Of a DNA stretch of 60,897 bases, positions 505 to 34,395 are shown piece after piece. Made by a program: the position numbers and the translations under genes. The stretch spans positions 1 through 60,897 of the IMG/VR virus record IMGVR_UViG_3300019889_000017; one strand, written 5' to 3'. Under the pieces are notes generated by a model, which ran no database searches, had not been told where the DNA came from, and was given only the letters and a program-made list of their open reading frames with translations. Each line of letters starts with the position of its first letter. Position 1 is the stretch's first letter. The stretch comes from a virus (taxonomy: Duplodnaviria > Caudoviricetes).

Positions 505-533
505 TTGACACTTAGATGTCATGCCTGTAAGGT
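505..533 (+). promoter_or_regulatory. Phage promoter/operator motif copy
   Basis: TTGACA-17-TAAGGT, with TGACA-N6-TGTCA dyad. Confidence 0.75.
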
Positions 534-7840: not shown

Positions 7841-7882
7841 TGTTCGGTCTCCTTGATACGTAATTGTCAAAGTTTGGGGTGC

Positions 7883-7936
7883 CCGGACTCGGGACGTGTG
7901 CGTTCTGGATGTTGGGACGGCCCTGGTCCCGAGCCG
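7883..7936 (-). ncRNA. Solitary TIGR-like stem-loop unit
   Basis: + strand CG-TGTGCGTTC-TGGATGTTG-GGACGGCCC-TGG closed by the CCGGACTCGGGA/TCCCGAGCCGG stem; loop is degenerate. Confidence 0.6.
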
Positions 7937-7977
7937 GACGAGACGTTACCTTACAGTCATGACGTACATGTAGTCAA

Positions 7978-8033
7978 CCCAGGGCAGGGCGCTTCTGCAA
8001 TAGGTATCGAGCCGAGATTGGCCCCGCCCCGGG
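7978..8033 (-). ncRNA. Solitary TIGR-like stem-loop unit
   Basis: + strand CG-CTTCTGCAA-TAGGTATCG-AGCCGAGAT-TGG in a 12-bp stem that pairs fully with G-U only on the minus strand. Confidence 0.75.
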
Positions 8034-8037
8034 AAGA

Positions 8038-11000
8038 TCATTTCTCGTAGCAGCGTGACCAGTCGGTTCCCGCCGGGCTCACATCCGCCAGGATGGGGAC
8101 CCCACGCCACTCGAACGACAGCGCTTCGACCACCGCGCGGCCGACGTCCACCGCGTCCTCCTCCGGCACGCTGAGGACAATCTCGTCGTGCACCTGCGCC
8201 CGCAGCATCGGCAGCACCTCGGCGGGGAGGCGCAACATCCCCTCCATCATGAGGTCGCGAGCCGCACCCTGGCCCATCAGCGCCGGGCCCTGGGTGTGGG
8301 CGCGCCGCGGGTCGGGCCGCATCATCCGGCCGAACCCGTTGTCCAGCAGCTGGCCGGACTCGGCGAGCACGCGAACCTCCTGCTGCCATTCGACCAGCCG
8401 GGGGAAGCGCTCGCGCATCGACGCGTCGAACCGACGGACCAGCGCTGGCTCGATGTCGTTCTCCATGCCGATCCGGCGCAGCGACTCCCCGTAGTTCCAG
8501 CCGTGCCCGATCGGCTTGGCGACCTCCCGGAACGAGCGGTCGCCGAACAGCGCCAGCGCCAGCTCGGCGTGGGGATCCTCCTCGTGCAGCATCGCGATGT
8601 ACGCCTGGTCCTGTGACAATCCCGCGACGGCGCGCATATCGACCTGCGAGAGGTCGACCGAGATCAGCACCTCCCCGGGATCGGGCAGCAGCACGGCGCG
8701 CTCGACGTGCCGGCCGTTCCGCTTGCCCATCACCGTGAGCCCCGGATCGGTCAGCGACCAGCGGCCGGTGGCCTGCTTGAACGACACCCTGGGGTGTACC
8801 CGGCCGTCCGGCGCCATGCTGTTGGCAATGGTCTCGTAGACGGTCCGCGCCGAGACGATCCGGTAGACCTCCTTGACGATGGCGCAGACCGCGGGCAGGT
8901 GGTGGTACTCCTGCCCCAGGTGGAGCATGTGGTCGGCGCTGACCTGGATCTCACCGGAGCTGGGCGTGGTCCAGATCGAGGTGGCCCCAGCCGCACGGAG
9001 TGCCTTCTCCAGCGCGGCCTTCCCCGGCTTGGTGGACAGCGGAGATAGGTAAGCCTTACCTTTGGCGTCCTCGGTCGGGATCGCACAGTGCTCGACCAGC
9101 GACTCCATGGCCCGGGCCTTACGGTCCCGGATCCCGTTCATCCGGACGGCGAGCAGACCCTGGTCCACCAGGAAGCCGTTGATCGAGATCTGCGCGGCGA
9201 GCGCGGCCACCCGGTGCTCCCGCACCAGGTACTCCGGCAGGCTTCCTCCCAGCTCCTCCAGGAGCTTGGAGTACAACCGCCGGGACAGCTCGACGTCCTG
9301 GACCATGTAGTCCTTGAAGGCCCGGCCGTCCTCAGAGTCATCGATCGGAATGTGCCACCAGCCGCCGTACTTCTTGGCCAGCCTCTTGGACACGTCGGTG
9401 AGCTTGGCACCCAGCCCGTACTTCTCGGCGAGCGTGCCGAGGTCGTACTTGCGGTCGGCGTCCACACCCTTGTCCCGGGCCATCGGCGGGTCCAGGAACC
9501 GGGCCACCACCAGCGCGTCGAAGAGTTTGCCGTCGGCGGCGTCGTGGTGGATCTGCTCCATGGTGATCTTTCGCGCCCGCACCAGCGCGGGGAGGTCGAA
9601 GGCCATGATGTTGTGGCCGGTAATGGTGCCCGCATTCTGGAGTCGACGCGCCACATACTCGGCGGTCCGATCGTGTGTGTACGAGACCACCGGATCATCA
9701 CCCCGGGCAGTCCCGCCGATTCGGACGTACTCGCTCCCCGGGGTGCGGTAGAGGTCGGCCGCGTCGCCGGTCTCCAGGTCGAACGTAACGACGTCGGCGG
9801 TTGACGCTGAAGTGTCAGGCTCCGGACCGTCCGGCGCGTACGTCAGGGCATACCCATCCGGGTGCATCTTGGGCTCGGCTCGCGGACCGTAATCCACAGG
9901 CTGTGGATCCACCGACGTTGGAGCGTCGGGCTCAGGGTCCGACGGCCCGGGTGCCGGCTCCGGCTCGGCGCCGGGCGCCGGGGGGAGGTCATCCTCCTCG
10001 AAAACCCGCCACTGGCTCACATGACCGAACGCGGAACCGACACGTTCGATCCACATTCCGTCGTACCGGCGCCCCTTCAGCCGCGAGTAGGCCTCGCCGA
10101 GCGCCTTGGTATAACCCTTCTCGCTCGGGTCGTCCAACTTGGGCGGGGCCATGTACGCAGCCGGATCGGCGAGCGCCTTCCCCTTGACGTCGGAGGCCCG
10201 GAACGTGTTGTTCGAGAACTGCTCTCGGAGCCAGCCCAGGTGGCCATGCCAGTACTGGGTGTCGAAGTCGCTCTCCGACCGCCAGATCTTGAGGTTCTTC
10301 AGGAAGCCGTCCAGCCCGGCGGCCTCCACGATCCCGCTGACGATCCGCTCCCAGACCTCGAACGACCCGAAGGAGATGCTGCGCCTCGGCCGCGGGGCAC
10401 CCTGGGCGAACCAGGCCCGGACCAGCGTGAGGATGGCCACCATCAGCTGGCGCCGGTTGGCCCGGCTCCAGCTCACCAGGTCCAGCCCCGAGATTCCGGG
10501 GTGGCGGAAGGAGCTGGACGGCCGGTCCTGCGGGTTGGCGTAGTCGGGCCTGATCGAGATCCGGTAGACCCGGCGGGTGAGGTCGCCGCGAACCTGGACC
10601 TGGTTCCCGAGGGATATCCAGGTGACCCGGTTCGGGAAGTTGGCCATCGTGCTGACGCCCAGGATCCGGTCCTGCCACGTCTCGGCGGTGAGCGCCTGGG
10701 CCAGCGGTGCGCCCTCGATCGTGTGCGCCTCATCGAAGACGAAGAACTCCTTGCCGGTGCGGAAAGCGCTGGTGATCTGCTTGCGCAGCTCCTCGGGCTC
10801 GGACACCCAGTTCATCGGCTCGGCCGCCGATCCGGTGTAGACCGAGATGATCGAGTCGGCGATCAGGTTCTTCCCCACGCCCGCCTGCAGGCCGTCGACC
10901 ACCGCGAGCGGCACCTTGGGGACCATGCCGCGGATGGCCGGGGTGACGATCAGCGCCAGCAGATTGGCCCGGTCGGCGTCCGTCTCGAACGGCATGTCGC

Positions 11001-12327
11001 CGAACCACTCGCTGAGAATCAGCTCGCGCGCGGCGGTGATCTCCTCCGGGCTCGGATTCTCGGGGACGGTCAGGCCCTCCAGCACCGGGTCCGCCAGAAG
11101 GATGGTCTTGGTGGCCTCGTCGTAGCCGGGCTCGGTGACGATCGTCCCGTCCGGCCGTACGAACGGGGCGTGCGCGACCCTCTCCAGCGGGGAGAACTTG
11201 GCTGACCGGCTGGTCACCGCGGCGATGGTGCCGGGGTCGGGCCACGTAAAGCTGTAGGTGACGCCGCCCTGGGCGTCGGAATTCTCGTTGACCGTGACCG
11301 CGGTCTCCTGGATCACGTCGTGGAAGGTCCCCCGGTCGACCGGGGACATGCCGGTTGCGGTCAGCCGGGAGATGACACCGCCGTGGTTGAACAGCTCCTT
11401 GCCGTCCCACCGGCTGATCAGCGCGCTGGTCAGGTCGTTGATCACCGACAGCCTGTCCCGGTTGCACACGACCGTGGTCCGGCCGTCCTTCCCCGTCGGC
11501 GCCTCCGAACCACGCCTGCGGGGCTTGGGCTTGGAGTCGGCGGGCTTCGGCTTGGCGCCCGCCAGGATCCGGGAGAAGTAAGCTGCCCGCCGTTCGGGCG
11601 CGCGCCCGGCGAGCACGTCGTCCAGGCCTGCCTTGGCGTCGTCCCCGGGGAGGCGGGTGAAGCTGATCTTGGTGGCGCCCTCCATCGCGAGGGCTTCGGC
11701 GAGCCCGGTTCCGGCCTGATAAACGTCAGGGTTGCTTGACGCATCGGCGTCCAAGATCACGACCACCGTACAGCCGTCGGCCAGGGCGAGGTCCGGAATC
11801 GGGCGGCCGTCGACCTGCCACATCCGGCAGCCCGCCATGCCGTACACCGCCCAGCCCTCGGGCGCGTAACTGGCGGCCGCTAGACACTGCTTGGTGCCCT
11901 CCACGATCAGCATCCGGTCGGCTTCCGGCGCCGAGCGCACGGCCCAGAGCACCGGTTCCATGCCCTTGCGGAAGACGTACTTACGGGTCCGGCCGCGACC
12001 GTCCTCGGTCGGGTCGTCCGGGCGGATCTGGTACTCGACACGCTCGCCGAGGTCGTCGGTCCAGGGGAAGAGGATGGCCGGAAAGTTGGCCCAGTTCTCC
12101 CACACCCCGCCGAGGCCCTTGGTGTCCTCTGGACTGACCAGCGACCGGACGCCGAGCGACCGGGCCAACTGCACGTCAACGGCCTGCGCCGTCAGGTACT
12201 CCTCGTGCGCCGCGGCCAGTTCTCCGACCACATGGCCGCCGTGCATCGCACCCTCGGTGCGCTTCAGCAGCTCTATGCCATCGACCAAACGCTGTTCATC
12301 CGGACGAATCATGTTATCGTCGCTCAC
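8038..12327 (-). CDS. Fused TOPRIM primase / P-loop NTPase (helicase-like) / 3'-5' exonuclease / family A DNA polymerase
   Basis: IVEGTK and ILDAD (TOPRIM); GLQAGVGKN and FVFDE; FDLET, GHNIMAFD, YMVQD (exonuclease); TGRWS, DLSQVDMR, REVAK...NYG, QVHDE (PolA). Confidence 0.88.
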   Translation of the reverse strand: MSDDNMIRPDEQRLVDGIELLKRTEGAMHGGHVVGELAAAHEEYLTAQAVDVQLARSLGVRSLVSPEDTKGLGGVWENWANFPAILFPWTDDLGERVEYQIRPDDPTEDGRGRTRKYVFRKGMEPVLWAVRSAPEADRMLIVEGTKQCLAAASYAPEGWAVYGMAGCRMWQVDGRPIPDLALADGCTVVVILDADASSNPDVYQAGTGLAEALAMEGATKISFTRLPGDDAKAGLDDVLAGRAPERRAAYFSRILAGAKPKPADSKPKPRRRGSEAPTGKDGRTTVVCNRDRLSVINDLTSALISRWDGKELFNHGGVISRLTATGMSPVDRGTFHDVIQETAVTVNENSDAQGGVTYSFTWPDPGTIAAVTSRSAKFSPLERVAHAPFVRPDGTIVTEPGYDEATKTILLADPVLEGLTVPENPSPEEITAARELILSEWFGDMPFETDADRANLLALIVTPAIRGMVPKVPLAVVDGLQAGVGKNLIADSIISVYTGSAAEPMNWVSEPEELRKQITSAFRTGKEFFVFDEAHTIEGAPLAQALTAETWQDRILGVSTMANFPNRVTWISLGNQVQVRGDLTRRVYRISIRPDYANPQDRPSSSFRHPGISGLDLVSWSRANRRQLMVAILTLVRAWFAQGAPRPRRSISFGSFEVWERIVSGIVEAAGLDGFLKNLKIWRSESDFDTQYWHGHLGWLREQFSNNTFRASDVKGKALADPAAYMAPPKLDDPSEKGYTKALGEAYSRLKGRRYDGMWIERVGSAFGHVSQWRVFEEDDLPPAPGAEPEPAPGPSDPEPDAPTSVDPQPVDYGPRAEPKMHPDGYALTYAPDGPEPDTSASTADVVTFDLETGDAADLYRTPGSEYVRIGGTARGDDPVVSYTHDRTAEYVARRLQNAGTITGHNIMAFDLPALVRARKITMEQIHHDAADGKLFDALVVARFLDPPMARDKGVDADRKYDLGTLAEKYGLGAKLTDVSKRLAKKYGGWWHIPIDDSEDGRAFKDYMVQDVELSRRLYSKLLEELGGSLPEYLVREHRVAALAAQISINGFLVDQGLLAVRMNGIRDRKARAMESLVEHCAIPTEDAKGKAYLSPLSTKPGKAALEKALRAAGATSIWTTPSSGEIQVSADHMLHLGQEYHHLPAVCAIVKEVYRIVSARTVYETIANSMAPDGRVHPRVSFKQATGRWSLTDPGLTVMGKRNGRHVERAVLLPDPGEVLISVDLSQVDMRAVAGLSQDQAYIAMLHEEDPHAELALALFGDRSFREVAKPIGHGWNYGESLRRIGMENDIEPALVRRFDASMRERFPRLVEWQQEVRVLAESGQLLDNGFGRMMRPDPRRAHTQGPALMGQGAARDLMMEGMLRLPAEVLPMLRAQVHDEIVLSVPEEDAVDVGRAVVEALSFEWRGVPILADVSPAGTDWSRCYEK

Positions 12328-13009: not shown

Positions 13010-13069
13010 CGGACTCCCCGTCCTGTTGTTAGGTCTCGAACCTTACAGGCTAGACGTTGAGGTGGTCAA

Positions 13070-13122
13070 CCGGGGCCGGGCGGCACTGGTTTGGGTATCG
13101 AAGCCCTTCTGGCCCAGCCCCG
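13070..13122 (-). ncRNA. Solitary TIGR-like stem-loop unit
   Basis: + strand CG-GCACTGGTT-TGGGTATCG-AAGCCCTTC-TGG closed by CCGGGGC/GCCCCGG. Confidence 0.8.
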
Positions 13123-13128
13123 GAAGCT

Positions 13129-15435: not shown

Positions 15436-15734
15436 TCCTGCTCCCCGGTCTTGGTGCTATCGGCCCACAGTCGCGGCGGCCACAGGTACTCCGCCTCGGT
15501 CAGGATCTTGACCCATTCGACCAATCGGCCGTCCCGTTCCAGCCAGCGCTCGACAGCCAGCCACCCGGCGGCGATCGGCACCCGGCCGCTACCGGTCACG
15601 TACCACAGGCCGCCCGCCTTCAGCATCGCGTAGGTGAAGGCGCGGCTGTGGCTCATCCCCGAGTAGCTGATACCGAACAGCAGCACCGTGTCGTCATCGA
15701 TCTTCTTGCTGTCGAAACCGAACTTCATCGTCAT
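15432..15734 (-). CDS. Hypothetical protein
   Basis: 'FTYAMLKAGGLWYVTG' motif, AGAAGG RBS. Confidence 0.6.
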   Translation of the reverse strand: MTMKFGFDSKKIDDDTVLLFGISYSGMSHSRAFTYAMLKAGGLWYVTGSGRVPIAAGWLAVERWLERDGRLVEWVKILTEAEYLWPPRLWADSTKTGEQE

Positions 15735-15843
15735 GCCTTCTATGTTAGCAGTGAGAACCCCGGACCGGGCGCGAAGATGATGGGTGACATTCCTCGGTCC
15801 TGGCGAGTTGACACTTCACAGTCAAGCCTGTTAAGCTTCTCCC

Positions 15844-16023
15844 ATGAAGAAGCGAGCGACACCGAAGCCCCTCTCCCCCGCCCAGATCAAGGCACTGACC
15901 AAGCTGGCGGACGGCGGTAGCAGTAACCAGATGCGCCGCGGCACCAACGACGCTCTCCACGACATGGGCCTCATGGAGCGGGGCCAGATCACCGCCGCTG
16001 GCCTCGCAGCCATCAGCCGCTGA
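15844..16023 (+). CDS. Small hypothetical protein, possible winged helix (59 aa)
   Basis: Leaderless after the promoter at 15808-15837; 'LSPAQIKAL...GLMERGQITAAGLAAI'; hairpin at 16031-16055. Confidence 0.55.
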   Translation: MKKRATPKPLSPAQIKALTKLADGGSSNQMRRGTNDALHDMGLMERGQITAAGLAAISR

Positions 16024-16128
16024 ACGAGACAGGCCCCGGGGAAACCCCGGGGCCTAGCGGTTGACACTTCACAGTCAAGCCTGTAACGTCGTATCCGTCA
16101 GCAGGGCCACACCGAGGAGGCACCGATC

Positions 16129-16356
16129 ATGATCGCTCACATCGCCGGTTACCAGATCAACGTCTACGCCGACGCAGATGCACTCCGCACCAACCGTGAG
16201 CCGGTCGAATCGATGCCCTGTGACGCCAAGGTCGGCGGGACCCGGAGCGCGGCGGTTCAGCTCATGTCCCACGGATACCTTCCCACCTCGGGGTTCGACT
16301 TCATACCGTGTGCGGTTCCGAACACCTGGACCATCGAAGTCATCAAGGTCGCCTGA
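16129..16356 (+). CDS. Small hypothetical protein
   Basis: GAGGAGG RBS, promoter at 16061-16089, GC hairpin downstream. Confidence 0.6.
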   Translation: MIAHIAGYQINVYADADALRTNREPVESMPCDAKVGGTRSAAVQLMSHGYLPTSGFDFIPCAVPNTWTIEVIKVA

Positions 16357-16386
16357 CGGACGGGGCCCCCGCCCCGGAAGGGGGGA

Positions 16387-16644
16387 GGGGGCCGCCACGG
16401 TGTTCACTTGCTGGGTACCAGAGAAGGTGTTGACCGTGGAGTGTGGCCCCCGAGCTGGGTGGGCCGCCATTGGGTAGCGAGACGAATATGACCCAGCTCG
16501 GGGAGTCTATGAAGTTGAGCCTCCGGTCCGCGGTGGTTCGTGTATGGGTACCGAAGCGACCTTGACCGCGACCCGGAGGGGTGTGAGCCCCGAGCTGGGT
16601 GTGCGGCAAATGGGTATCGAGCGATCGATGACCCCAGCTCGGGG
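16387..16644 (-). ncRNA. TIGR-like stem-loop array, 4 units, downstream of the Tas gene
   Basis: Four hairpins, each enclosing TG-N9-TGGGTAHC(G/A)-N9(10)-TGA on the + strand; stem CCCCGAGCTGGG used twice. Confidence 0.85.
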
Positions 16645-16650
16645 AGTCTC

Positions 16651-17490
16651 CTAGTCGTTCGCAGCGTGCCAGTCCCGGGCCGCGATCCAGAGATCCTTCA
16701 GCACGGTCTTGCTGACGATCCTCAGCGCGTCGGCGTGCTGGTGGCCCGGCCGCCACGGGGCGGTGATCAGCTCCGTCTTACCGGCGCCGTTGCACTGCGG
16801 GCACGGCCGGTCGTGGACCTTCTCCGCGGTCACCGCCCGGCGCTTGTCGTAGACCTCGCGGTACGGGGAGCGAGCCTGCTTGACGCAACTCTCCGAGATC
16901 AGGTAGGCGCGCGTCTTGGCGTCCGTCGACCAGTTCGACTTCTGGCCCTTCCTGCGCCGGGCGGCACCCCGAATGCTGGCATTCTGGGTGTCGAGCTCTA
17001 TTTGACCCGAGATGCCGCCCGGCTGTTCATCCCCGCCGATGCTCCGACCTTGAGCACCGCTAGGTGTATGAACGACGGGGATCGTGTGCAGGCCACTGTA
17101 GGCCCAGAGTTCACTGACGGTGCGCGGCCGGTCGTGGAGGATGTTCCAGTACGGGTCGCCGATGGTGGCCAGTAGGCGCGCCAGCTGCTTCTCCCCGATC
17201 CCGATCTGTTCCTTCTGCCACGGCCCCAGCGGGTGCTTCCGCATCGCTCGCTGAAGGCCGAGGATGACGGCGTGCTCCAGTTTGGCGAGGTTCTCCCCGG
17301 CAACGCGGATGGCCGCGACGTCGGGGTCGTCCGGCGACAGGCCCATCCCCCGCATCTCGTCGTCCGAGTCGACTTCGGACCGGGTGGCCTGCCGGAACCG
17401 GTTGTCCGTGGCCTTGCGTAGCTCCTCCAGACCGTCGAGCTGGGCGGCCAGCAGGAAGATCGCGGTGTTGCCGCGCAACATCTCACTCAT
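16651..17490 (-). CDS. tasA: TasA-like Nop/IS110-domain RNA-binding protein, no nuclease domain
   Basis: Coiled-coil N-terminus, GIGEKQLARLLATIGD, SELWAYSGL, RRKGQKSNWS, PYREVYDKRR, HADALRIVSKTVLKDLW; no RuvC or HNH; flanked by dual-spacer arrays. Confidence 0.8.
   Translation of the reverse strand: MSEMLRGNTAIFLLAAQLDGLEELRKATDNRFRQATRSEVDSDDEMRGMGLSPDDPDVAAIRVAGENLAKLEHAVILGLQRAMRKHPLGPWQKEQIGIGEKQLARLLATIGDPYWNILHDRPRTVSELWAYSGLHTIPVVHTPSGAQGRSIGGDEQPGGISGQIELDTQNASIRGAARRRKGQKSNWSTDAKTRAYLISESCVKQARSPYREVYDKRRAVTAEKVHDRPCPQCNGAGKTELITAPWRPGHQHADALRIVSKTVLKDLWIAARDWHAAND
16959..17082 (-). ncRNA. Two TIGR-like units embedded in-frame in tasA
   Basis: TG-CTGGCATTC-TGGGTGTCG-AGCTCTATT-TGA and TG-CTCCGACCT-TGAGCACCG-CTAGGTGTA-TGA, each in a 10-13 bp stem. 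Confidence 0.75.
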
Positions 17491-18055
17491 CGCACAGCAC
17501 CTCTTCGACCTGCTCATCGGAGAGGTCGGCGACGACCTCGACGTGGTGTTGCTGCATCACCTTGACCAGCTTGCGGTACTTGCGCGCCGTGGTGGCGTTG
17601 GCCTCGGACTGCCGGTCCGACTCGGCCGCGGCGAACTCCAGGTCCGCAATCGTGCACCGCTCGATGTCACGGTACGTCTTGTTGCCCAGCCAGAGGGACA
17701 GCCGGACGCGGTGCTTCCGGAACAACGCGACGCGGGAGTTCCGGACGTTGCCGCCACCGGGGAGGACGCCGGCTGATTGGGCAGCGATGCGGGTTTGGTC
17801 CTCCCCGGTGACGGTGCTTTGACCCGGCTCGATGGTGTCCCTCTGGGTATCGGCTGCCAGTTGATCGGGCCGGGAGTCCTTGCGCGGGACGGTGGCCAGT
17901 TCCCGGCGGACCGTCTCGGTCAGCGCCTGGCGGTAGGCCTCGCTCGTTGCGGCCTTGGGCGTGCGTTCGAAGATCAGGTTGGCCAGGGTGTCCAGGTTCT
18001 CCTCGGTGGTGTCCGTGAGGATCGCCCGGATGTGCTGGCGGAGGTCGAATTTCAT
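17483..18055 (-). CDS. Tas-associated hypothetical protein (190 aa)
   Basis: MKFDLRQH start with GGAGAGG RBS; ATGAGTGA overlap with tasA. Confidence 0.75.
   Translation of the reverse strand: MKFDLRQHIRAILTDTTEENLDTLANLIFERTPKAATSEAYRQALTETVRRELATVPRKDSRPDQLAADTQRDTIEPGQSTVTGEDQTRIAAQSAGVLPGGGNVRNSRVALFRKHRVRLSLWLGNKTYRDIERCTIADLEFAAAESDRQSEANATTARKYRKLVKVMQQHHVEVVADLSDEQVEEVLCDE
17757..17874 (-). ncRNA. Two TIGR-like units embedded in-frame in the partner gene
   Basis: CG-CCGGCTGAT-TGGGCAGCG-ATGCGGGTT-TGG and TG-GTGTCCCTC-TGGGTATCG-GCTGCCAGT-TGA in 10-bp stems. Confidence 0.75.
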
Positions 18056-18087
18056 GGGTGTTCGGTTCCTCTCCGTTGGTCCATGGG

Positions 18088-18784
18088 CCGGTACGAATGG
18101 CGACGCTATGGGTATCGTATGGGCTGTGATTCGTACCGGGTCAAGAACAGACGGTGCGCTGCATTTGGGTATCGGCGGTGTATTGACCGTCTGCTCATGA
18201 CCCGGTACGAATGTAGAGTGGTTGGGTATCGGTGGGACTTTGATTCGTACCGGTTCAAGAACAGACGGTGTGCCGAGCTTGGGTATCAGCGAACCTGTGA
18301 CCATCTGCTCATGATCCGGTACGAATGTAGGAAACATGGGTATCGGACCCGCTTTGATTCGTACCGGTTCAAGAACAGACGGTGGGACGACTTTGGATAT
18401 CGGGAGGACTATGACCGTCTGCTCATGACCCGGTACGAATGGTGTCCCCATGGGTATCGGATCCGCTTTGATTCGTACCGGTTCAAGAACAGACGGTGCT
18501 TTGCCTTTGGGTATCGGAGAACCTTTAAACCGTCTGCTCATGACCTGGTACGAATGCGGGGAGCTTGGGTATCGAATCTTCACTGATTCGTACCGGCTCA
18601 TGAGCAGACGGTGCGTTCCTTATGGTTGACGGTGTCACCTTGACCGTCTGCTCATTGACCGATGTGAATGATTGATCCGTGGGTATCGCCGATACAATGA
18701 TTCACACCAGTGAATGAACAGACGGGGTTCCCCGGGGCGGTGATCGAACTCTGGATATCGCCACCATCTTGACCGCCCCGGGGA
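18088..18784 (-). ncRNA. Main TIGR-like stem-loop array, 12 units
   Basis: 57-bp units (114-bp period): TG-N9-TGGGTATCG-N9-TGA with unique 9-mers, alternating stems CCGGTACGAA and CAGACGG. Confidence 0.9.
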
Positions 18785-18790
18785 GGTCGA

Positions 18791-19243
18791 CTACTTCTCG
18801 ACGTGCCTGACAGCGACCCCGAAATGCCTGTATGGCTTCCCGGCGTACGGGCCGGTACGGGCGATCTTCTCGCCGAAGAACTTGACCGCCATACGGTCGC
18901 CGAGCTCGGCGTCCGCGTCCAGCAGCTCCCGCTTCAGCACGGAGCTGTAGCCGATGACACGGTACTTCGTGCCGTCCTTGGTCTGGATCGTGACCGTGGG
19001 AACCATCGGGTTGTCGCCGGGCTTGGCGTAGTCCGACCGGGTCTCGCCCACCTTGATCACCAGGCCGGAGATACCCTCGCCGTGCTCGGTGGGGACCCAG
19101 CCTTCGGAGTCGTCCTCCTCAACCGAGTCCAGCAGGTCATCGAAGTCATCCTCCGAGACTTCCTTGGCGGTGTCCGTCAGGCTTTCGAACAGCTCGTCCG
19201 CCTCGTCCTTGGCGGGGGGAGTCTTACTGGTGCTTCCGGCCAC
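18791..19243 (-). CDS. Putative ssDNA-binding protein
   Basis: Acidic N-terminus plus beta-rich OB-like body, near the YqaJ exonuclease; AAGGAGG RBS. Confidence 0.55.
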   Translation of the reverse strand: MAGSTSKTPPAKDEADELFESLTDTAKEVSEDDFDDLLDSVEEDDSEGWVPTEHGEGISGLVIKVGETRSDYAKPGDNPMVPTVTIQTKDGTKYRVIGYSSVLKRELLDADAELGDRMAVKFFGEKIARTGPYAGKPYRHFGVAVRHVEK

Positions 19244-24688: not shown

Positions 24689-24840
24689 CGCTCGCTCCCT
24701 GTTCTCCGTGCTCGCTGCTGATACGGAGGACTTTACAGGCGTGACAGTGGAGTGTCAACCTCAACGGCATGCCGATGAAGTAAGTCACACAGGTGCTCAG
24801 AGAGTTGACACTTTACTGTCACGCCTGTAAAGTAGTTCTC

Positions 24841-25103: not shown

Positions 25104-25364
25104 TCAGGCTGCAGCGGACACCAGGTCCGTGCGCGCGCCCTGGCCTGGGCGGCCGGCCTTCCACTCGTCCAGGCTGGCCCGGGTGAAAACGGGCAGGTTG
25201 TACTGACCCTCTGCCTTCCGGTCGGGGTTGGCCTCCGGCCCGATGCCGCGCGCGACGTAGCTGGAGAGGGTGTTCCGCTTCAGGCCCAGGTACTCGGCCG
25301 CCGGACCGTACCCGACGAATTCATCGGGAAGGTCAGACAAGATCTCCGTGGATCTCGCACCCAT
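25104..25364 (-). CDS. HTH DNA-binding protein (AlpA/excisionase-like)
   Basis: AAEYLGLKRNTLSSYVARGIGP...F...LDEWKAGRPGQG; GGAGG RBS. Confidence 0.75.
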   Translation of the reverse strand: MGARSTEILSDLPDEFVGYGPAAEYLGLKRNTLSSYVARGIGPEANPDRKAEGQYNLPVFTRASLDEWKAGRPGQGARTDLVSAAA

Positions 25365-25487
25365 GATGGTCTGGCCTCCCTGATCAACTCGCAGTCCAGT
25401 CACAGCTGTTACTTTACCGGCGCGCCTGTCAAATGACAAGCCCGCCACTTACTTGTATCGGCACATAATAAAAGTTCGCCGGGGAGG

Positions 25488-31578: not shown

Positions 31579-34395
31579 TTACAAGAACTCCGATGGGTCG
31601 GGTGTGGTCGGCCACGGCTGCCGGACGAGCACCAGGCTCAGCACCTTGACCGTGCTCACTGGGCCCTTGACGGTCCAGCCCTGCGGGGCGAACCAGCCGG
31701 GCATACCACCCAGAGGTGAGTAGTAGATCCGGTCGGCACTGAGTAGTGCCTCCAGCCGGTTGATGGCAGCTCGGCCCTCGACAGCGATCGACAGGCTGAG
31801 GTCCTCCCCGGTCAGGGTCGTGGACACCGAGTGCAGCCCGCCGTCCAGCGGGATGGAGTCAACCACCAGCCGCGGGAATGCGCTGGTCCGATCGGTGGCC
31901 ACGGCCATCTTGTCGGTCAGGCTCGCGATCCGGTCCAGGTTGTCGGTGTAGGTGAAGGCCGGAACCGTGGAGCTGGAGAAGTCGCTCACCTTCAGCTCCG
32001 GCACGGCCAGCGGGCCACCGGAGATCGTGCCGTCCAGCCGGACGAAATGAGCCTCCTTGTAGACCGGAACGTGACTGGCGCTGGTCGTGGTGCCCGACCC
32101 GTTGGACGCGATGCCCGGGGTCGCCGAGCCGGAGTTGCCGCTGGTGTGGGTGTGGCCGGTGGTCGGAGAGTCGCCCAGGTCGCCGGAGGTCGGCCGCTCG
32201 AAAGAGCCGGTCCCCGAGACGGCGACGTTCGTGTCGTGGCTGTGCGAGCCCATCCCGTGGGTGTGGCTGCCCGCGGTGTGGGTGTGCGACGAGGACCCGC
32301 CGGTGCTGTTCACCGAGTCGGCGCCGACGTCCCGGGCGAACCAGGTCCGCATGTCCGGGGTCCCGCTGTTGCCGTCGCACAACGTCAGCAGCGGATCGAG
32401 CGCAGCCACCGTGCCGAGGTACAGGCCGATGATCCGGGTCTGAGTGCCACCCCCGGAATTGACCAGCGTGCGGAGCCTCCGGTTCGGCGGATCCAGGGAG
32501 GCCGCGCTGGTCGCACCTCCGGACGCCGAGCTCAAGTCTCCGGAGTCCGCGTTCGTCACGGTCATCGGGTGGTTGTGCCTCGGCAGCCAGCGAGGGGAGG
32601 AGGAGCCGAATCCGGCCTCCTGGCTGGAGACCGGGTTGCTCAGGCTGGTGTTGCTCAGCGAGTGGGCATGGATGAACCCGTCGTGCGTGTGCGCGGCCAC
32701 GGTGTGCGTGTGGGTGGCCGTGCCAGTGCTCGCCCCGCCGTTGCCCGCTGCAGCAGCGCCGCGCAGGTACCTCCCCGAACTGGGTGCGTCGGTGTCCCAG
32801 CCGGACACGCTCTCGGTGGCCCAGCCGAGTACCCCGGTGGGGTAGTTGGCCTGTGAGCCGTCCGACTCGATCCAGATCACCTCGCGCGTGGACGGCAGGT
32901 TGTTGGCGGAGTTCGTCGCGGGGGTAGCCAGGCCGGACAGGAACGCGTCCCGGACACCGGTCGCGCTCGGCCGGGTGTGCGAGTGCGGCTGGTCAGCCTG
33001 AGGCTGGCTGGCCCCGTTGAACCGGGCGCTGGTGGTGGAGCTGTTGGACGTGCCCGTGTTGCCACCAACGCTGTGGCTGTGGGCGCCGATCGTGTGGCCG
33101 TGGCTGGTGGCCATCGAGTGGCTGTGGCTGGCCGTCCCTCCGGTTGCACTAGGTGCGCCGGTGCCGGTCGCCCCACGCGGGTAGAAGCCGTCCAGTGCGG
33201 CCACCCGGGTCCAGCCGGACGGGATGCTGGCGATCGTGCTCGGCCAGGCCAGGATCATGTCCGCCGGGATGGTGTCCGGCAGTTCCACGAACGTCGAGAC
33301 GTAACCCCAGTACCGGACCCGGTAGGTGATGTCACAGGCCTCGTCCGACGGCTCGCAGTCGGGGCCGCTCAGCTGCGGGTCCAGCTGTGGAATCGCCAGA
33401 TCCAGGTAGGAGCCGTTGAGCCCGTCCGGCACGGTCGCGATCCGGGACGACCCGGTGCAGTCGTCGCGGTAGACCTCGGCCACGACGTAGTCGTTGTCCC
33501 ACATCTGGCCGCCGGGGTTCTCCCAGGTCACCCGGTACCCGCCGAATTCAGGCGTGACCGTGACAAGGGGAGGTGAAGGCGGGGGGATGGTGTTCTCGAT
33601 GCTGAACGCGAGAATCTGTGTGTGCTCGAACGGGTCGGCTCCCCGGATGGTCGAGCGGACCACGAAGGTTGCGGTGTACGTGCCGTCGGGCAGGCCGGTG
33701 GTGACCGGCACCGTACCGGGCGGAGTGCCCGAGCCGGAGCTGGAGAACACAGTCACGGCCGCGCCGTTCTTCACTGTGACGGCCCAGCTCAGGGGAGGTA
33801 GACCGTCGTATCCGACGCCGCCGAAGAACAGATCCGGCTGGTTAGTGTCGGTGACCGTGCCGCCGGTCTGGTCGACGCCCGCATTGTCCTGGATCTCGGG
33901 GCTGTAGTCAGGTTGCAGGCGGGTATCGACATCGACGTACATCTCCGCCGTGCGCGTTTCGGTGGCGCCGTCCTCCGGCTGGTCGAACCAGCCACCGCCG
34001 ATGTTCAGGTCGGACAGGGCGCCCGCGGTGCTGAGCCCGTACTCGGCGTCCTGGTACCACGATCCGGACTGCTCGGTGAACACGGCGGTGACCGGCACCG
34101 TGTCGAACCCGATGAAGTCGTCGGTCCCGCGGCCGAGGTCGATGTCCTCGGTGCACGTCCCGGCGTCGGCTCGGATCCGGATCCGGCCGCGGACCCGGTG
34201 CCGCCCGTAACCGGCCGCGGGTGTGTGCGGGCCCACCCTCAGGTTGTAGTTGTCGCTGGAGTCGGCCTCGTTGAAATCCACGTACGTGGCATCGGAGTTG
34301 TCCGAGGTCACAGCCGCCAGAGTGCCCGAAGGTACGGCGGTTCCACCTCCCGTCTTACGGACGGAGACGGGCCTCAGAACGTCGACAACAGCCAT
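31579..34395 (-). CDS. Tail fibre / minor tail protein with collar-like domains and HxH repeats
   Basis: IPSGW, LCDGNSGTPD, many HSH/HTH motifs. Confidence 0.75.
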   Translation of the reverse strand: MAVVDVLRPVSVRKTGGGTAVPSGTLAAVTSDNSDATYVDFNEADSSDNYNLRVGPHTPAAGYGRHRVRGRIRIRADAGTCTEDIDLGRGTDDFIGFDTVPVTAVFTEQSGSWYQDAEYGLSTAGALSDLNIGGGWFDQPEDGATETRTAEMYVDVDTRLQPDYSPEIQDNAGVDQTGGTVTDTNQPDLFFGGVGYDGLPPLSWAVTVKNGAAVTVFSSSGSGTPPGTVPVTTGLPDGTYTATFVVRSTIRGADPFEHTQILAFSIENTIPPPSPPLVTVTPEFGGYRVTWENPGGQMWDNDYVVAEVYRDDCTGSSRIATVPDGLNGSYLDLAIPQLDPQLSGPDCEPSDEACDITYRVRYWGYVSTFVELPDTIPADMILAWPSTIASIPSGWTRVAALDGFYPRGATGTGAPSATGGTASHSHSMATSHGHTIGAHSHSVGGNTGTSNSSTTSARFNGASQPQADQPHSHTRPSATGVRDAFLSGLATPATNSANNLPSTREVIWIESDGSQANYPTGVLGWATESVSGWDTDAPSSGRYLRGAAAAGNGGASTGTATHTHTVAAHTHDGFIHAHSLSNTSLSNPVSSQEAGFGSSSPRWLPRHNHPMTVTNADSGDLSSASGGATSAASLDPPNRRLRTLVNSGGGTQTRIIGLYLGTVAALDPLLTLCDGNSGTPDMRTWFARDVGADSVNSTGGSSSHTHTAGSHTHGMGSHSHDTNVAVSGTGSFERPTSGDLGDSPTTGHTHTSGNSGSATPGIASNGSGTTTSASHVPVYKEAHFVRLDGTISGGPLAVPELKVSDFSSSTVPAFTYTDNLDRIASLTDKMAVATDRTSAFPRLVVDSIPLDGGLHSVSTTLTGEDLSLSIAVEGRAAINRLEALLSADRIYYSPLGGMPGWFAPQGWTVKGPVSTVKVLSLVLVRQPWPTTPDPSEFL

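Follow-up and report, generated by a model that had tools for sequence, protein, structure and literature searches.

Organization of the locus

The DNA analyzed here (the window) spans 60,897 bp and makes up a complete virus record (IMG/VR IMGVR_UViG_3300019889_000017; GC content 67%). Between positions 18784 and 16395 its minus strand carries a stem-loop TIGR-TasA system, in which tandem hairpins, each presenting two variable nine-base spacers (A and B), surround tasA, a gene for a predicted Nop-domain protein. Followed along the minus strand, the order is hairpins U01–U12, a 190-residue open reading frame (ORF-up), the 279-residue tasA and hairpins U17–U20. With four further units lying inside the two genes (U13–U16), the locus possesses 20 units, all on the same strand as tasA. 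A previous reading of the letters alone, hereafter the original prediction, had described a 279-residue reading frame with 12 hairpins upstream and four downstream, and all of these were located on the minus strand. The principal features are:

18086–18784, minus strand: upstream stem-loop TIGR array of 12 units, U01–U12 (covariance-model E 3.8e-13 to 4.4e-8)
17483–18055, minus strand: ORF-up, 190 residues, phrog_4604, fold without a match (PHROGs; homologue search)
16651–17490, minus strand: tasA, 279-residue coiled-coil and Nop-domain protein (phmmer, AlphaFold2 model, Foldseek)
16395–16644, minus strand: downstream array of four units, U17–U20 (covariance-model E 3.8e-8 for U17 and 0.34 for U20)

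Guide units

Each unit consists of a stem of approximately 10–13 bp enclosing (U/C)CA, N9, a nine-base CGAUACCCA-like loop, N9 and C(A/G). Units U04–U12 fall within a 114-nucleotide (nt) tandem repeat of five copies in which two stem types alternate, and U20 is degenerate, its spacer A being 10 nt long. The pattern TCA-N9-YSRTAYCCA-N9-CA, allowing one mismatch, gives 16 matches, all on the minus strand, where 0.12 would be expected, and none of 100 shuffles reached 16. The constant boxes and variable 9-mers of the original prediction are thereby borne out, though the exact form TCA-N9-CGATACCCA-N9-CA is found in only eight of the 16 hairpins that it listed, the other eight carrying one to three base changes in a box or the loop. 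A search of the whole genome with the strict motif plus a stem returned 21 matches on the minus strand and none on the plus strand (shuffle mean 0.74). Spacer A is distinct in 21/21 units and so is spacer B; spacer columns hold 0.01–0.25 bit of information, versus 0.75–1.8 bit for those box columns that were not set by the search pattern.

A covariance model trained on 16 units recovered units that had been left out (U17, E 3.8e-8; U05, E 4.4e-8; U15, E 0.013), and its best plus-strand match in the genome has an E value of 0.017. Across 16 units 92.2% of the stem cells are paired, against 35–43% in shifted-partner controls; all 12 of the 12 pairs examined are changed on both sides, and none of 500 shuffles matches the covariation score. 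The stems of the 20 units contain 16 G·U pairs when read on the minus strand and two A–C mismatches, which would be G·U on the plus strand; when units were selected blind to G·U the counts in the window were 12 and 3. The original prediction had G–U pairs completing the stems only on the minus strand: the preference stands, and "only" should read "mostly". Rfam returned a single sub-threshold match to a microRNA family (E 0.74; 21.6 bits versus a gathering score of 49), which was taken as noise. By eye, a GC-rich hairpin, GGCCCCC...GGGGGCC, follows U20 at 16360–16400 on the minus strand; it has no T run and was not called by the terminator scan.

The TasA protein

Pfam detects no domain at E≤1 and no nuclease family in the 279-residue protein, which PHROGs assigns to phrog_4285, "transposase" (E 2e-88). 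A phmmer search of PDB yielded only two real matches, TaTasR (9mty_A, E 2.1e-9) and TasH (E 1.6e-6). The AlphaFold2 model, built from 40 homologues (mean pLDDT 84.9), opens directly with a coiled-coil helix (residues 3–36), has a helical domain after its long coiled coil and shows a single disordered stretch, residues 137–178. Foldseek places TasR or TasH chains at all ten PDB matches with E≤0.001 (TM approximately 0.6), followed by the IS621 recombinase (2e-3) and, weakly, by Nop5, Nop56 and Prp31; the original prediction of an IS110/Nop-related, Nop-only protein of the TasA kind thus survives the structural comparison, with TasR and TasH ranking ahead of IS621 and Nop5. The first aligned stretch pairs residues 69–134 with TaTasR 151–211, from which it follows that the N-terminal domain of TasR has no counterpart here, and the lack of a nuclease domain places the protein in the TasA subtype. 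Judged from sequence and model, it belongs to the Tas family, carries a Nop domain but no nuclease domain, and is a TasA.

The motif H226/C230/C233/H250/H252 recurs in 38 of the 40 homologues aligned and in gp70 of mycobacteriophage Pinto, and in the alignment is missing at the matching place in TasH; a zinc site at residues 226–252 is plausible on this pattern. Membership in the IS110 family was considered and rejected, there being neither a DEDD RuvC-like nor a C-terminal serine domain, and many single-loop units in place of a single bridge RNA. The "transposase" label of PHROGs is explained by the Nop-like RNA-binding domain common to IS110/IS621.

Relatives and the upstream partner gene

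With a threshold of E≤0.001, a word-index protein search recovered 1595 homologues; apart from the protein itself, the closest is 73% identical, and those with names come from Streptomyces and Kitasatospora. Conservation of the protein is strong, and invariant residues are found throughout the Nop core. The phage collection contains 91 matching records, none of which reaches 60% identity: Mycobacterium phages account for 83, Gordonia phages for five, and Arthrobacter, Rhodococcus and Microcystis phages for one apiece. Actinoplanes phage phiAsp2 is not among the TasA matches of this protein search, and megablast of the locus against the same collection gave zero matches. Related loci were drawn from genomes (26, nearly all Actinomycetota) and from IMG/VR (four), and comparisons extend over 31 loci.

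When the strict motif was required together with a stem of 6 bp or more, these 31 loci and the window region yielded 160 units on the tasA strand and two on the opposite strand. Applied to nine related loci, the covariance model gives 37 matches at E≤0.01, all of them around tasA on its strand. The same model finds no Pinto hairpin at E≤0.01, so the case for Pinto rests on folding and a reading of its sequence: the 335 nt separating gp71 from gp70 fold into a series of five hairpins (z = −5.65). The original prediction had depended on spacers varying among homologous loci, and at the 70%-identical locus L001 units occur at the same positions, by eye, with different spacers while the boxes persist. 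In cluster-A mycobacteriophages (Pinto, locus L005, 222–3199) the gp70/gp71 pair is situated just downstream of the annotated immunity repressor gp75 and the superinfection immunity gene gp73; the annotation of gp70 varies by record between "transposase", "DNA binding domain protein" and "hypothetical protein".

In 29 of the 31 related loci an ORF-up homologue is encoded upstream of tasA in the same orientation; L017 and L029 lack it. No Pfam family, no PDB fold match at E≤0.001 and no usable ESM Atlas match was obtained for ORF-up; Pfam gives no nuclease family, and neither Pfam nor the fold search makes it ParB-like. Its stop overlaps the ATG of tasA, an arrangement indicative of translational coupling, and we surmise that the conserved upstream protein probably acts together with TasA.

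Units within genes and orphan units

In addition to the hairpins of the original prediction, the locus contains four units within coding sequence, and three or four orphans occur elsewhere in the genome:

17821–17876, minus strand: U13, in ORF-up residues ~61–78, a disordered linker (motif, covariance model)
17755–17810, minus strand: U14, in ORF-up residues ~83–100, boxes CCA...CG, loop CGCUGCCCA (covariance model)
17029–17082, minus strand: U15, in tasA residues ~137–154, degenerate loop CGGUGCUCA, a weak call (covariance-model E 0.013)
16962–17017, minus strand: U16, in tasA residues ~159–176, within the disordered insertion 137–178 (motif, covariance model)
13069–13124, minus strand: orphan U21, directly past the helicase stop and abutting a promoter-like motif (covariance-model E 8.2e-7)
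7978–8033, minus strand: orphan O1, directly past the DNA polymerase stop and abutting a promoter-like motif (covariance-model E 1.7e-5)
7882–7938, minus strand: probable orphan O2, ~100 bases past the polymerase stop (covariance-model E 0.011, borderline)
48762–48816, minus strand: possible orphan O3, just past the stop of the major capsid gene, with a less regular stem (covariance-model E 0.0025)

U13 and U14 coincide with the disordered residues 60–101 of the ORF-up model, and U15 and U16 span tasA residues ~137–176, which correspond to the disordered insertion of the TasA model. All four are read in the same codon phase, the loops of U13 and U16 being translated as Asp-Thr-Gln, and in the homologues the insertion shows a D/E-x-Q/H signature once or twice, the remainder being freely variable. 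The orphans reach up to 31 kb from tasA, and U21, O1 and O3 lie within ~20 bases after the stops of the helicase, family-A DNA polymerase and major capsid genes, respectively.

The phage-specific promoter-like motif TTGAC-N16-21-TGTAARGT occurs six times in the genome, where none is expected, at 505–533(+), 7948–7977(−), 13040–13069(−), 24730–24758(−), 24805–24833(+) and 51793–51821(+). Two of these copies begin exactly at the end of an orphan hairpin, and the divergent pair near 24.7–24.8 kb may mark an early control region. Candidate units at 25338–25369, 32430–32462 and 2792–2823, proposed by a loose motif scan, were dropped for want of covariance-model support. The first (minus strand; CCA-N9-CGAGAUCCA-N9-UG, with a 10-bp stem) overlaps a ribosome-binding site and start codon in the 25.2–26.0 kb intergenic region and is probably due to chance.

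Genomic setting

The capsid protein of this virus is 74% identical to its counterpart in phiAsp2, and the two genomes are collinear across their replication modules. The original prediction had called the system phage-encoded, and this is supported, the window being the whole 60.9-kb record of a virus related to phiAsp2. The TasA cassette and approximately 650 bp of small reading frames make up an interval of ~3 kb (window 15734–18791), at the equivalent of which phiAsp2, between pas50 and pas51, has 82 bp (L033 39886–39968). Because this close relative, which has no TasA, also lacks the interval, the TIGR-TasA system is, by this comparison of sequences, an inserted accessory cassette. The first 50 kb of the 58.6-kb phiAsp2 genome contain no full-length guide unit, nor are there any at the gene ends where the window has its orphans.

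The cassette is flanked by a YqaJ/RecE-like exonuclease gene on one side and by helicase and DNA polymerase genes on the other, that is, by a replication/recombination module. The polymerase domain (family A) of the 1429-residue reading frame at 8038–12327 (minus strand) occupies only its last ~300 residues; the phiAsp2 counterpart is pas55. The host of the phage is more likely to be Actinoplanes-like than Streptomyces.

Possible spacer origin and predicted target geometry

Within the five 114-nt copies the scaffolds (stems, boxes and loop) are 79–94% identical, versus 37–40% for the spacers. Nevertheless, 14 pairs of spacers share at least six of nine bases, compared with 5.5 in letter-shuffled controls (fraction 0.002), and the A spacers of U06 and U08 share eight of nine. 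Arrays that grew by duplication while their spacers changed fast would fit these data, but the same pattern would result if the scaffolds had undergone gene conversion. The spacers have a GC content of 54%, compared with 67% for the genome.

The published geometry pairs each spacer with its DNA strand's 3′ half, beside the flanking duplex (PMC13421893; Guan 2026, bioRxiv 10.64898/2026.08.11.744272). It follows that an 18-bp site should read, on one strand, as spacer A and then spacer B in reverse complement.

Proposed function

We hold it to be highly probable that an uncultured soil actinophage carries this stem-loop TIGR-TasA system in its replication module as an accessory cassette, and that the system works as an RNA-guided DNA binder that does not cut. 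Directly established are the layout of the locus and its strand, TasA's homology and fold, and the fact that the spacers vary. The steps of processing, loading of a dimer, binding to DNA and repression, as well as the geometry of the target, are modeled here on other Tas proteins. In the proposed mechanism the minus strand would be transcribed within a long operon and the transcript cut to single hairpin units of roughly 55–60 nt; Faure 2025 (PMC12045711) describes hairpins processed to single units. A TasA dimer would grip each unit via its box nucleotides, (U/C)CA before and C(G/A) after each spacer, whereupon the two 9-nt spacers would pair with adjoining 9-bp halves on opposite DNA strands of an 18-bp site. 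Since TasA has no nuclease domain, the complex would be expected to bind this site uncut, blocking transcription or replication there, and the sites would most likely reside in other mobile elements or the host and not in the phage's own genome. Such a role, that of a programmable non-cutting repressor, would correspond to what Xu 2026 (bioRxiv 10.64898/2026.09.09.750476) reports of other TasA proteins, namely RNA-guided and reversible repression of transcription.

A number of observations weigh against this reading, among them the outcomes of the target searches. The phage's own genome contains no site with three or fewer mismatches in either of the two-strand geometries, and neither the 31 related loci with the whole window nor the first 50 kb (of 58.6 kb) of phiAsp2 hold targets in excess, the former by comparison with re-paired controls. 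One guide searched against 201 Streptomyces genomes gave one match at one mismatch versus two control matches, Streptomyces being probably the wrong genus since the host is more likely Actinoplanes-like. Three guides searched for exact matches in IMG/VR gave 0, 1 and 0, the single match lying in an unrelated AT-rich contig. The original prediction had proposed looking for spacer A joined to the reverse complement of spacer B; none was found, the outside collections having been covered with four of the ~24 guides. Near-matches (four or fewer mismatches) in the own genome are scarcer for the 24 spacer pairs than in controls, with four versus 13.1 in geometry G1 and five versus 11.6 in G2, and 2.5% (G1) and 2.2% (G2) of 400 re-paired control sets are equally low or lower; the same-strand geometries show no such depletion in this genome. 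This could reflect avoidance of self-targets, but is not significant given 12 comparisons, for which reason it is not counted as a finding.

The remaining points concern the units and their expression. With selection blind to G·U, the 177 units across all loci have 57 G·U pairs versus 27 A–C mismatches, a bias of only ~2:1. The CUU motif, which Xu 2026 connects with processing at the stem bases, is present in only four of the 11 upstream linkers, always after the same stem type, and the boxes are UCA/CCA ... CG/CA, versus CUU/UG as reported for PateTasR; given its UCA/CCA boxes, this clade may employ a processing signal other than CUU. Simple scans at the locus found no promoter and no minus-strand terminator, the terminator scan giving one plus-strand terminator-like site where 2.0 were expected. 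Lastly, the phage sequence is present in only two DNA sequencing runs, both from one soil sample, and no RNA run is listed.

A more far-reaching version of this reading, tentative and in our estimation rather doubtful, is that actinophage TIGR-TasA represents a distinct two-protein subtype, in which the partner is co-translated, same-frame units occupy the disordered linkers of both genes, further units are scattered at operon ends by promoters, and arrays grow by tandem duplication followed by mutation of the spacers in place. If this were so, the position of units at operon ends by promoters would make guide output dependent on how the replication and capsid operons are transcribed. Duplication and in-place mutation would, likewise, offer one explanation for the origin of TIGR spacers in the absence of acquisition machinery. 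Xu 2026 names spacer origin as open, together with the natural targets and biological role of TIGR-Tas.

Alternative explanations

RNA-guided binding to DNA might serve an end other than repression, bending or marking sites for phage recombination, replication or segregation, possibly with the upstream protein. The position of the cassette between a YqaJ/RecE-like exonuclease gene and those for helicase and DNA polymerase, within a replication/recombination module, is in its favor, as are the translational coupling of a conserved partner gene to tasA and the Discussion of Faure 2025 (PMC12045711), which raises integrase-aid and ParB-linked roles for TasA. We nevertheless think it unlikely: a self-directed role requires matches in the phage's own genome, of which there are none at three or fewer mismatches, and the partner is not ParB-like by Pfam or fold search.

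It is more improbable still that the guides pair with host or phage RNA in the manner of box C/D sRNAs, with TasA masking the RNA or controlling its decay or translation. The Nop fold and the boxed two-guide layout are indeed common to box C/D ribonucleoproteins (weak Foldseek matches to Nop5 and Nop56; Faure 2025, PMC12045711), and spacers of 54% GC in a genome of 67% GC would suit unstructured RNA targets as well as promoters. However, the closest relatives by both sequence and fold are the DNA-targeting TasR and TasH and not Nop5, Xu 2026 and Guan 2026 describe binding of double-stranded DNA by TasA proteins of other clades, and neither fibrillarin nor L7Ae is found as a partner beside tasA.

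That the hairpins are purely structural (terminators, mRNA-end protectors or REP-like repeats) and the protein a decayed IS110-type remnant that uses no guides is scarcely credible, for although PHROGs labels the family "transposase" and the orphans stand exactly at gene ends, two of them abutting promoter-like motifs, where terminators are expected, plain hairpins would not retain strand-specific boxes around two hypervariable 9-mers in 31 loci, the protein is strongly conserved (1595 homologues; invariant residues in the Nop core) and has no DEDD or serine recombinase domain, and TasA-less phiAsp2, over its first 50 kb, has none of these units at the corresponding gene ends.

A guide-directed, non-cutting DNA binder remains the preferred reading, and the locus contributes to its study a complete phage genome with ~24 guides together with a close TasA-less relative, phiAsp2. 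The same protein family, accompanied by the same partner gene and by intervening hairpins, is found in 83 cultured Mycobacterium and five Gordonia phage records, Pinto gp71/gp70 being an example. As these phages have a tractable host, the native expression, targets and phenotype of TIGR-TasA should be directly testable.

Comparison with known systems

Faure 2025 (PMC12045711) describes stem-loop TIGR arrays beside TasA, with variable palindromic stems, two spacers of 8–12 nt and box C/D-like nucleotides, and Xu 2026 (bioRxiv 10.64898/2026.09.09.750476) lists 2,559 stem-loop arrays, mostly with loops of 9 nt, as well as units within tas coding sequences at disordered insertions. The two-spacer boxed hairpins of the window match these arrays, so that the TIGR-Tas architecture named in the original prediction was well chosen; the novelty that it implied was not, stem-loop TasA, intragenic tigRNAs and repression by TasA having already been published. 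As regards actinophages, we found no paper on TIGR, except that Faure 2025 cites a review on mycobacteriophages, though supplementary tables may list them.

The nearest described systems are those of PlTasA (from a Peromyscus leucopus gut contig), whose structure together with a tigRNA of the stem-loop type and with DNA has been determined (Guan 2026, bioRxiv 10.64898/2026.08.11.744272), BlTasA (Bifidobacterium longum) and MbTasA (Minisyncoccota). Like the window protein these consist of a nuclease-free coiled coil and Nop domain; the systems have the same tandem hairpins with two ~9-nt spacers, a 9-nt loop between them and short flanking boxes, and the same arrays on both sides of tas together with units in its disordered insertion (the wedge loop in BlTasA). 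The boxes, in contrast, are CUU/UG there and (U/C)CA and C(G/A) here, with CUU at four of 11 linkers in the window. In a comparison made by description and not by sequence, the clade-specific H-C-C-H-H motif, a conserved upstream partner gene with two units of its own, and the orphan units set the window system apart.

TaTasR (9MTY) and SpTasH of a Salicola phage (9W04 and others), which are dual-repeat systems, share a homologous Nop core and the same two-spacer guides, whereas the window protein has neither RuvC nor HNH, its units have variable palindromic stems instead of conserved edge repeats, and unit length is ~56 nt as opposed to 36 nt. The IS110/IS621 bridge-RNA recombinases (8WT6, 8WT9) have a Nop-like RNA-binding domain in common with the window protein (Foldseek E 2e-3 to 2e-2), but the window system possesses no DEDD/RuvC-like or serine Tnp domain, many single-loop guides in place of one two-loop bridge RNA, and no element ends. 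With archaeal and eukaryotic box C/D ribonucleoproteins (Nop5, Nop56/58) it shares the Nop fold (Foldseek E 1.5–3) and a pseudo-symmetric, boxed two-guide RNA; it differs in lacking K-turn boxes, fibrillarin and L7Ae were not found next to tasA, and the target, by analogy with other Tas proteins, would be DNA and not rRNA. The window locus is thus not a new kind of system: it belongs to the published stem-loop TIGR-TasA kind, to which it adds clade-specific features.

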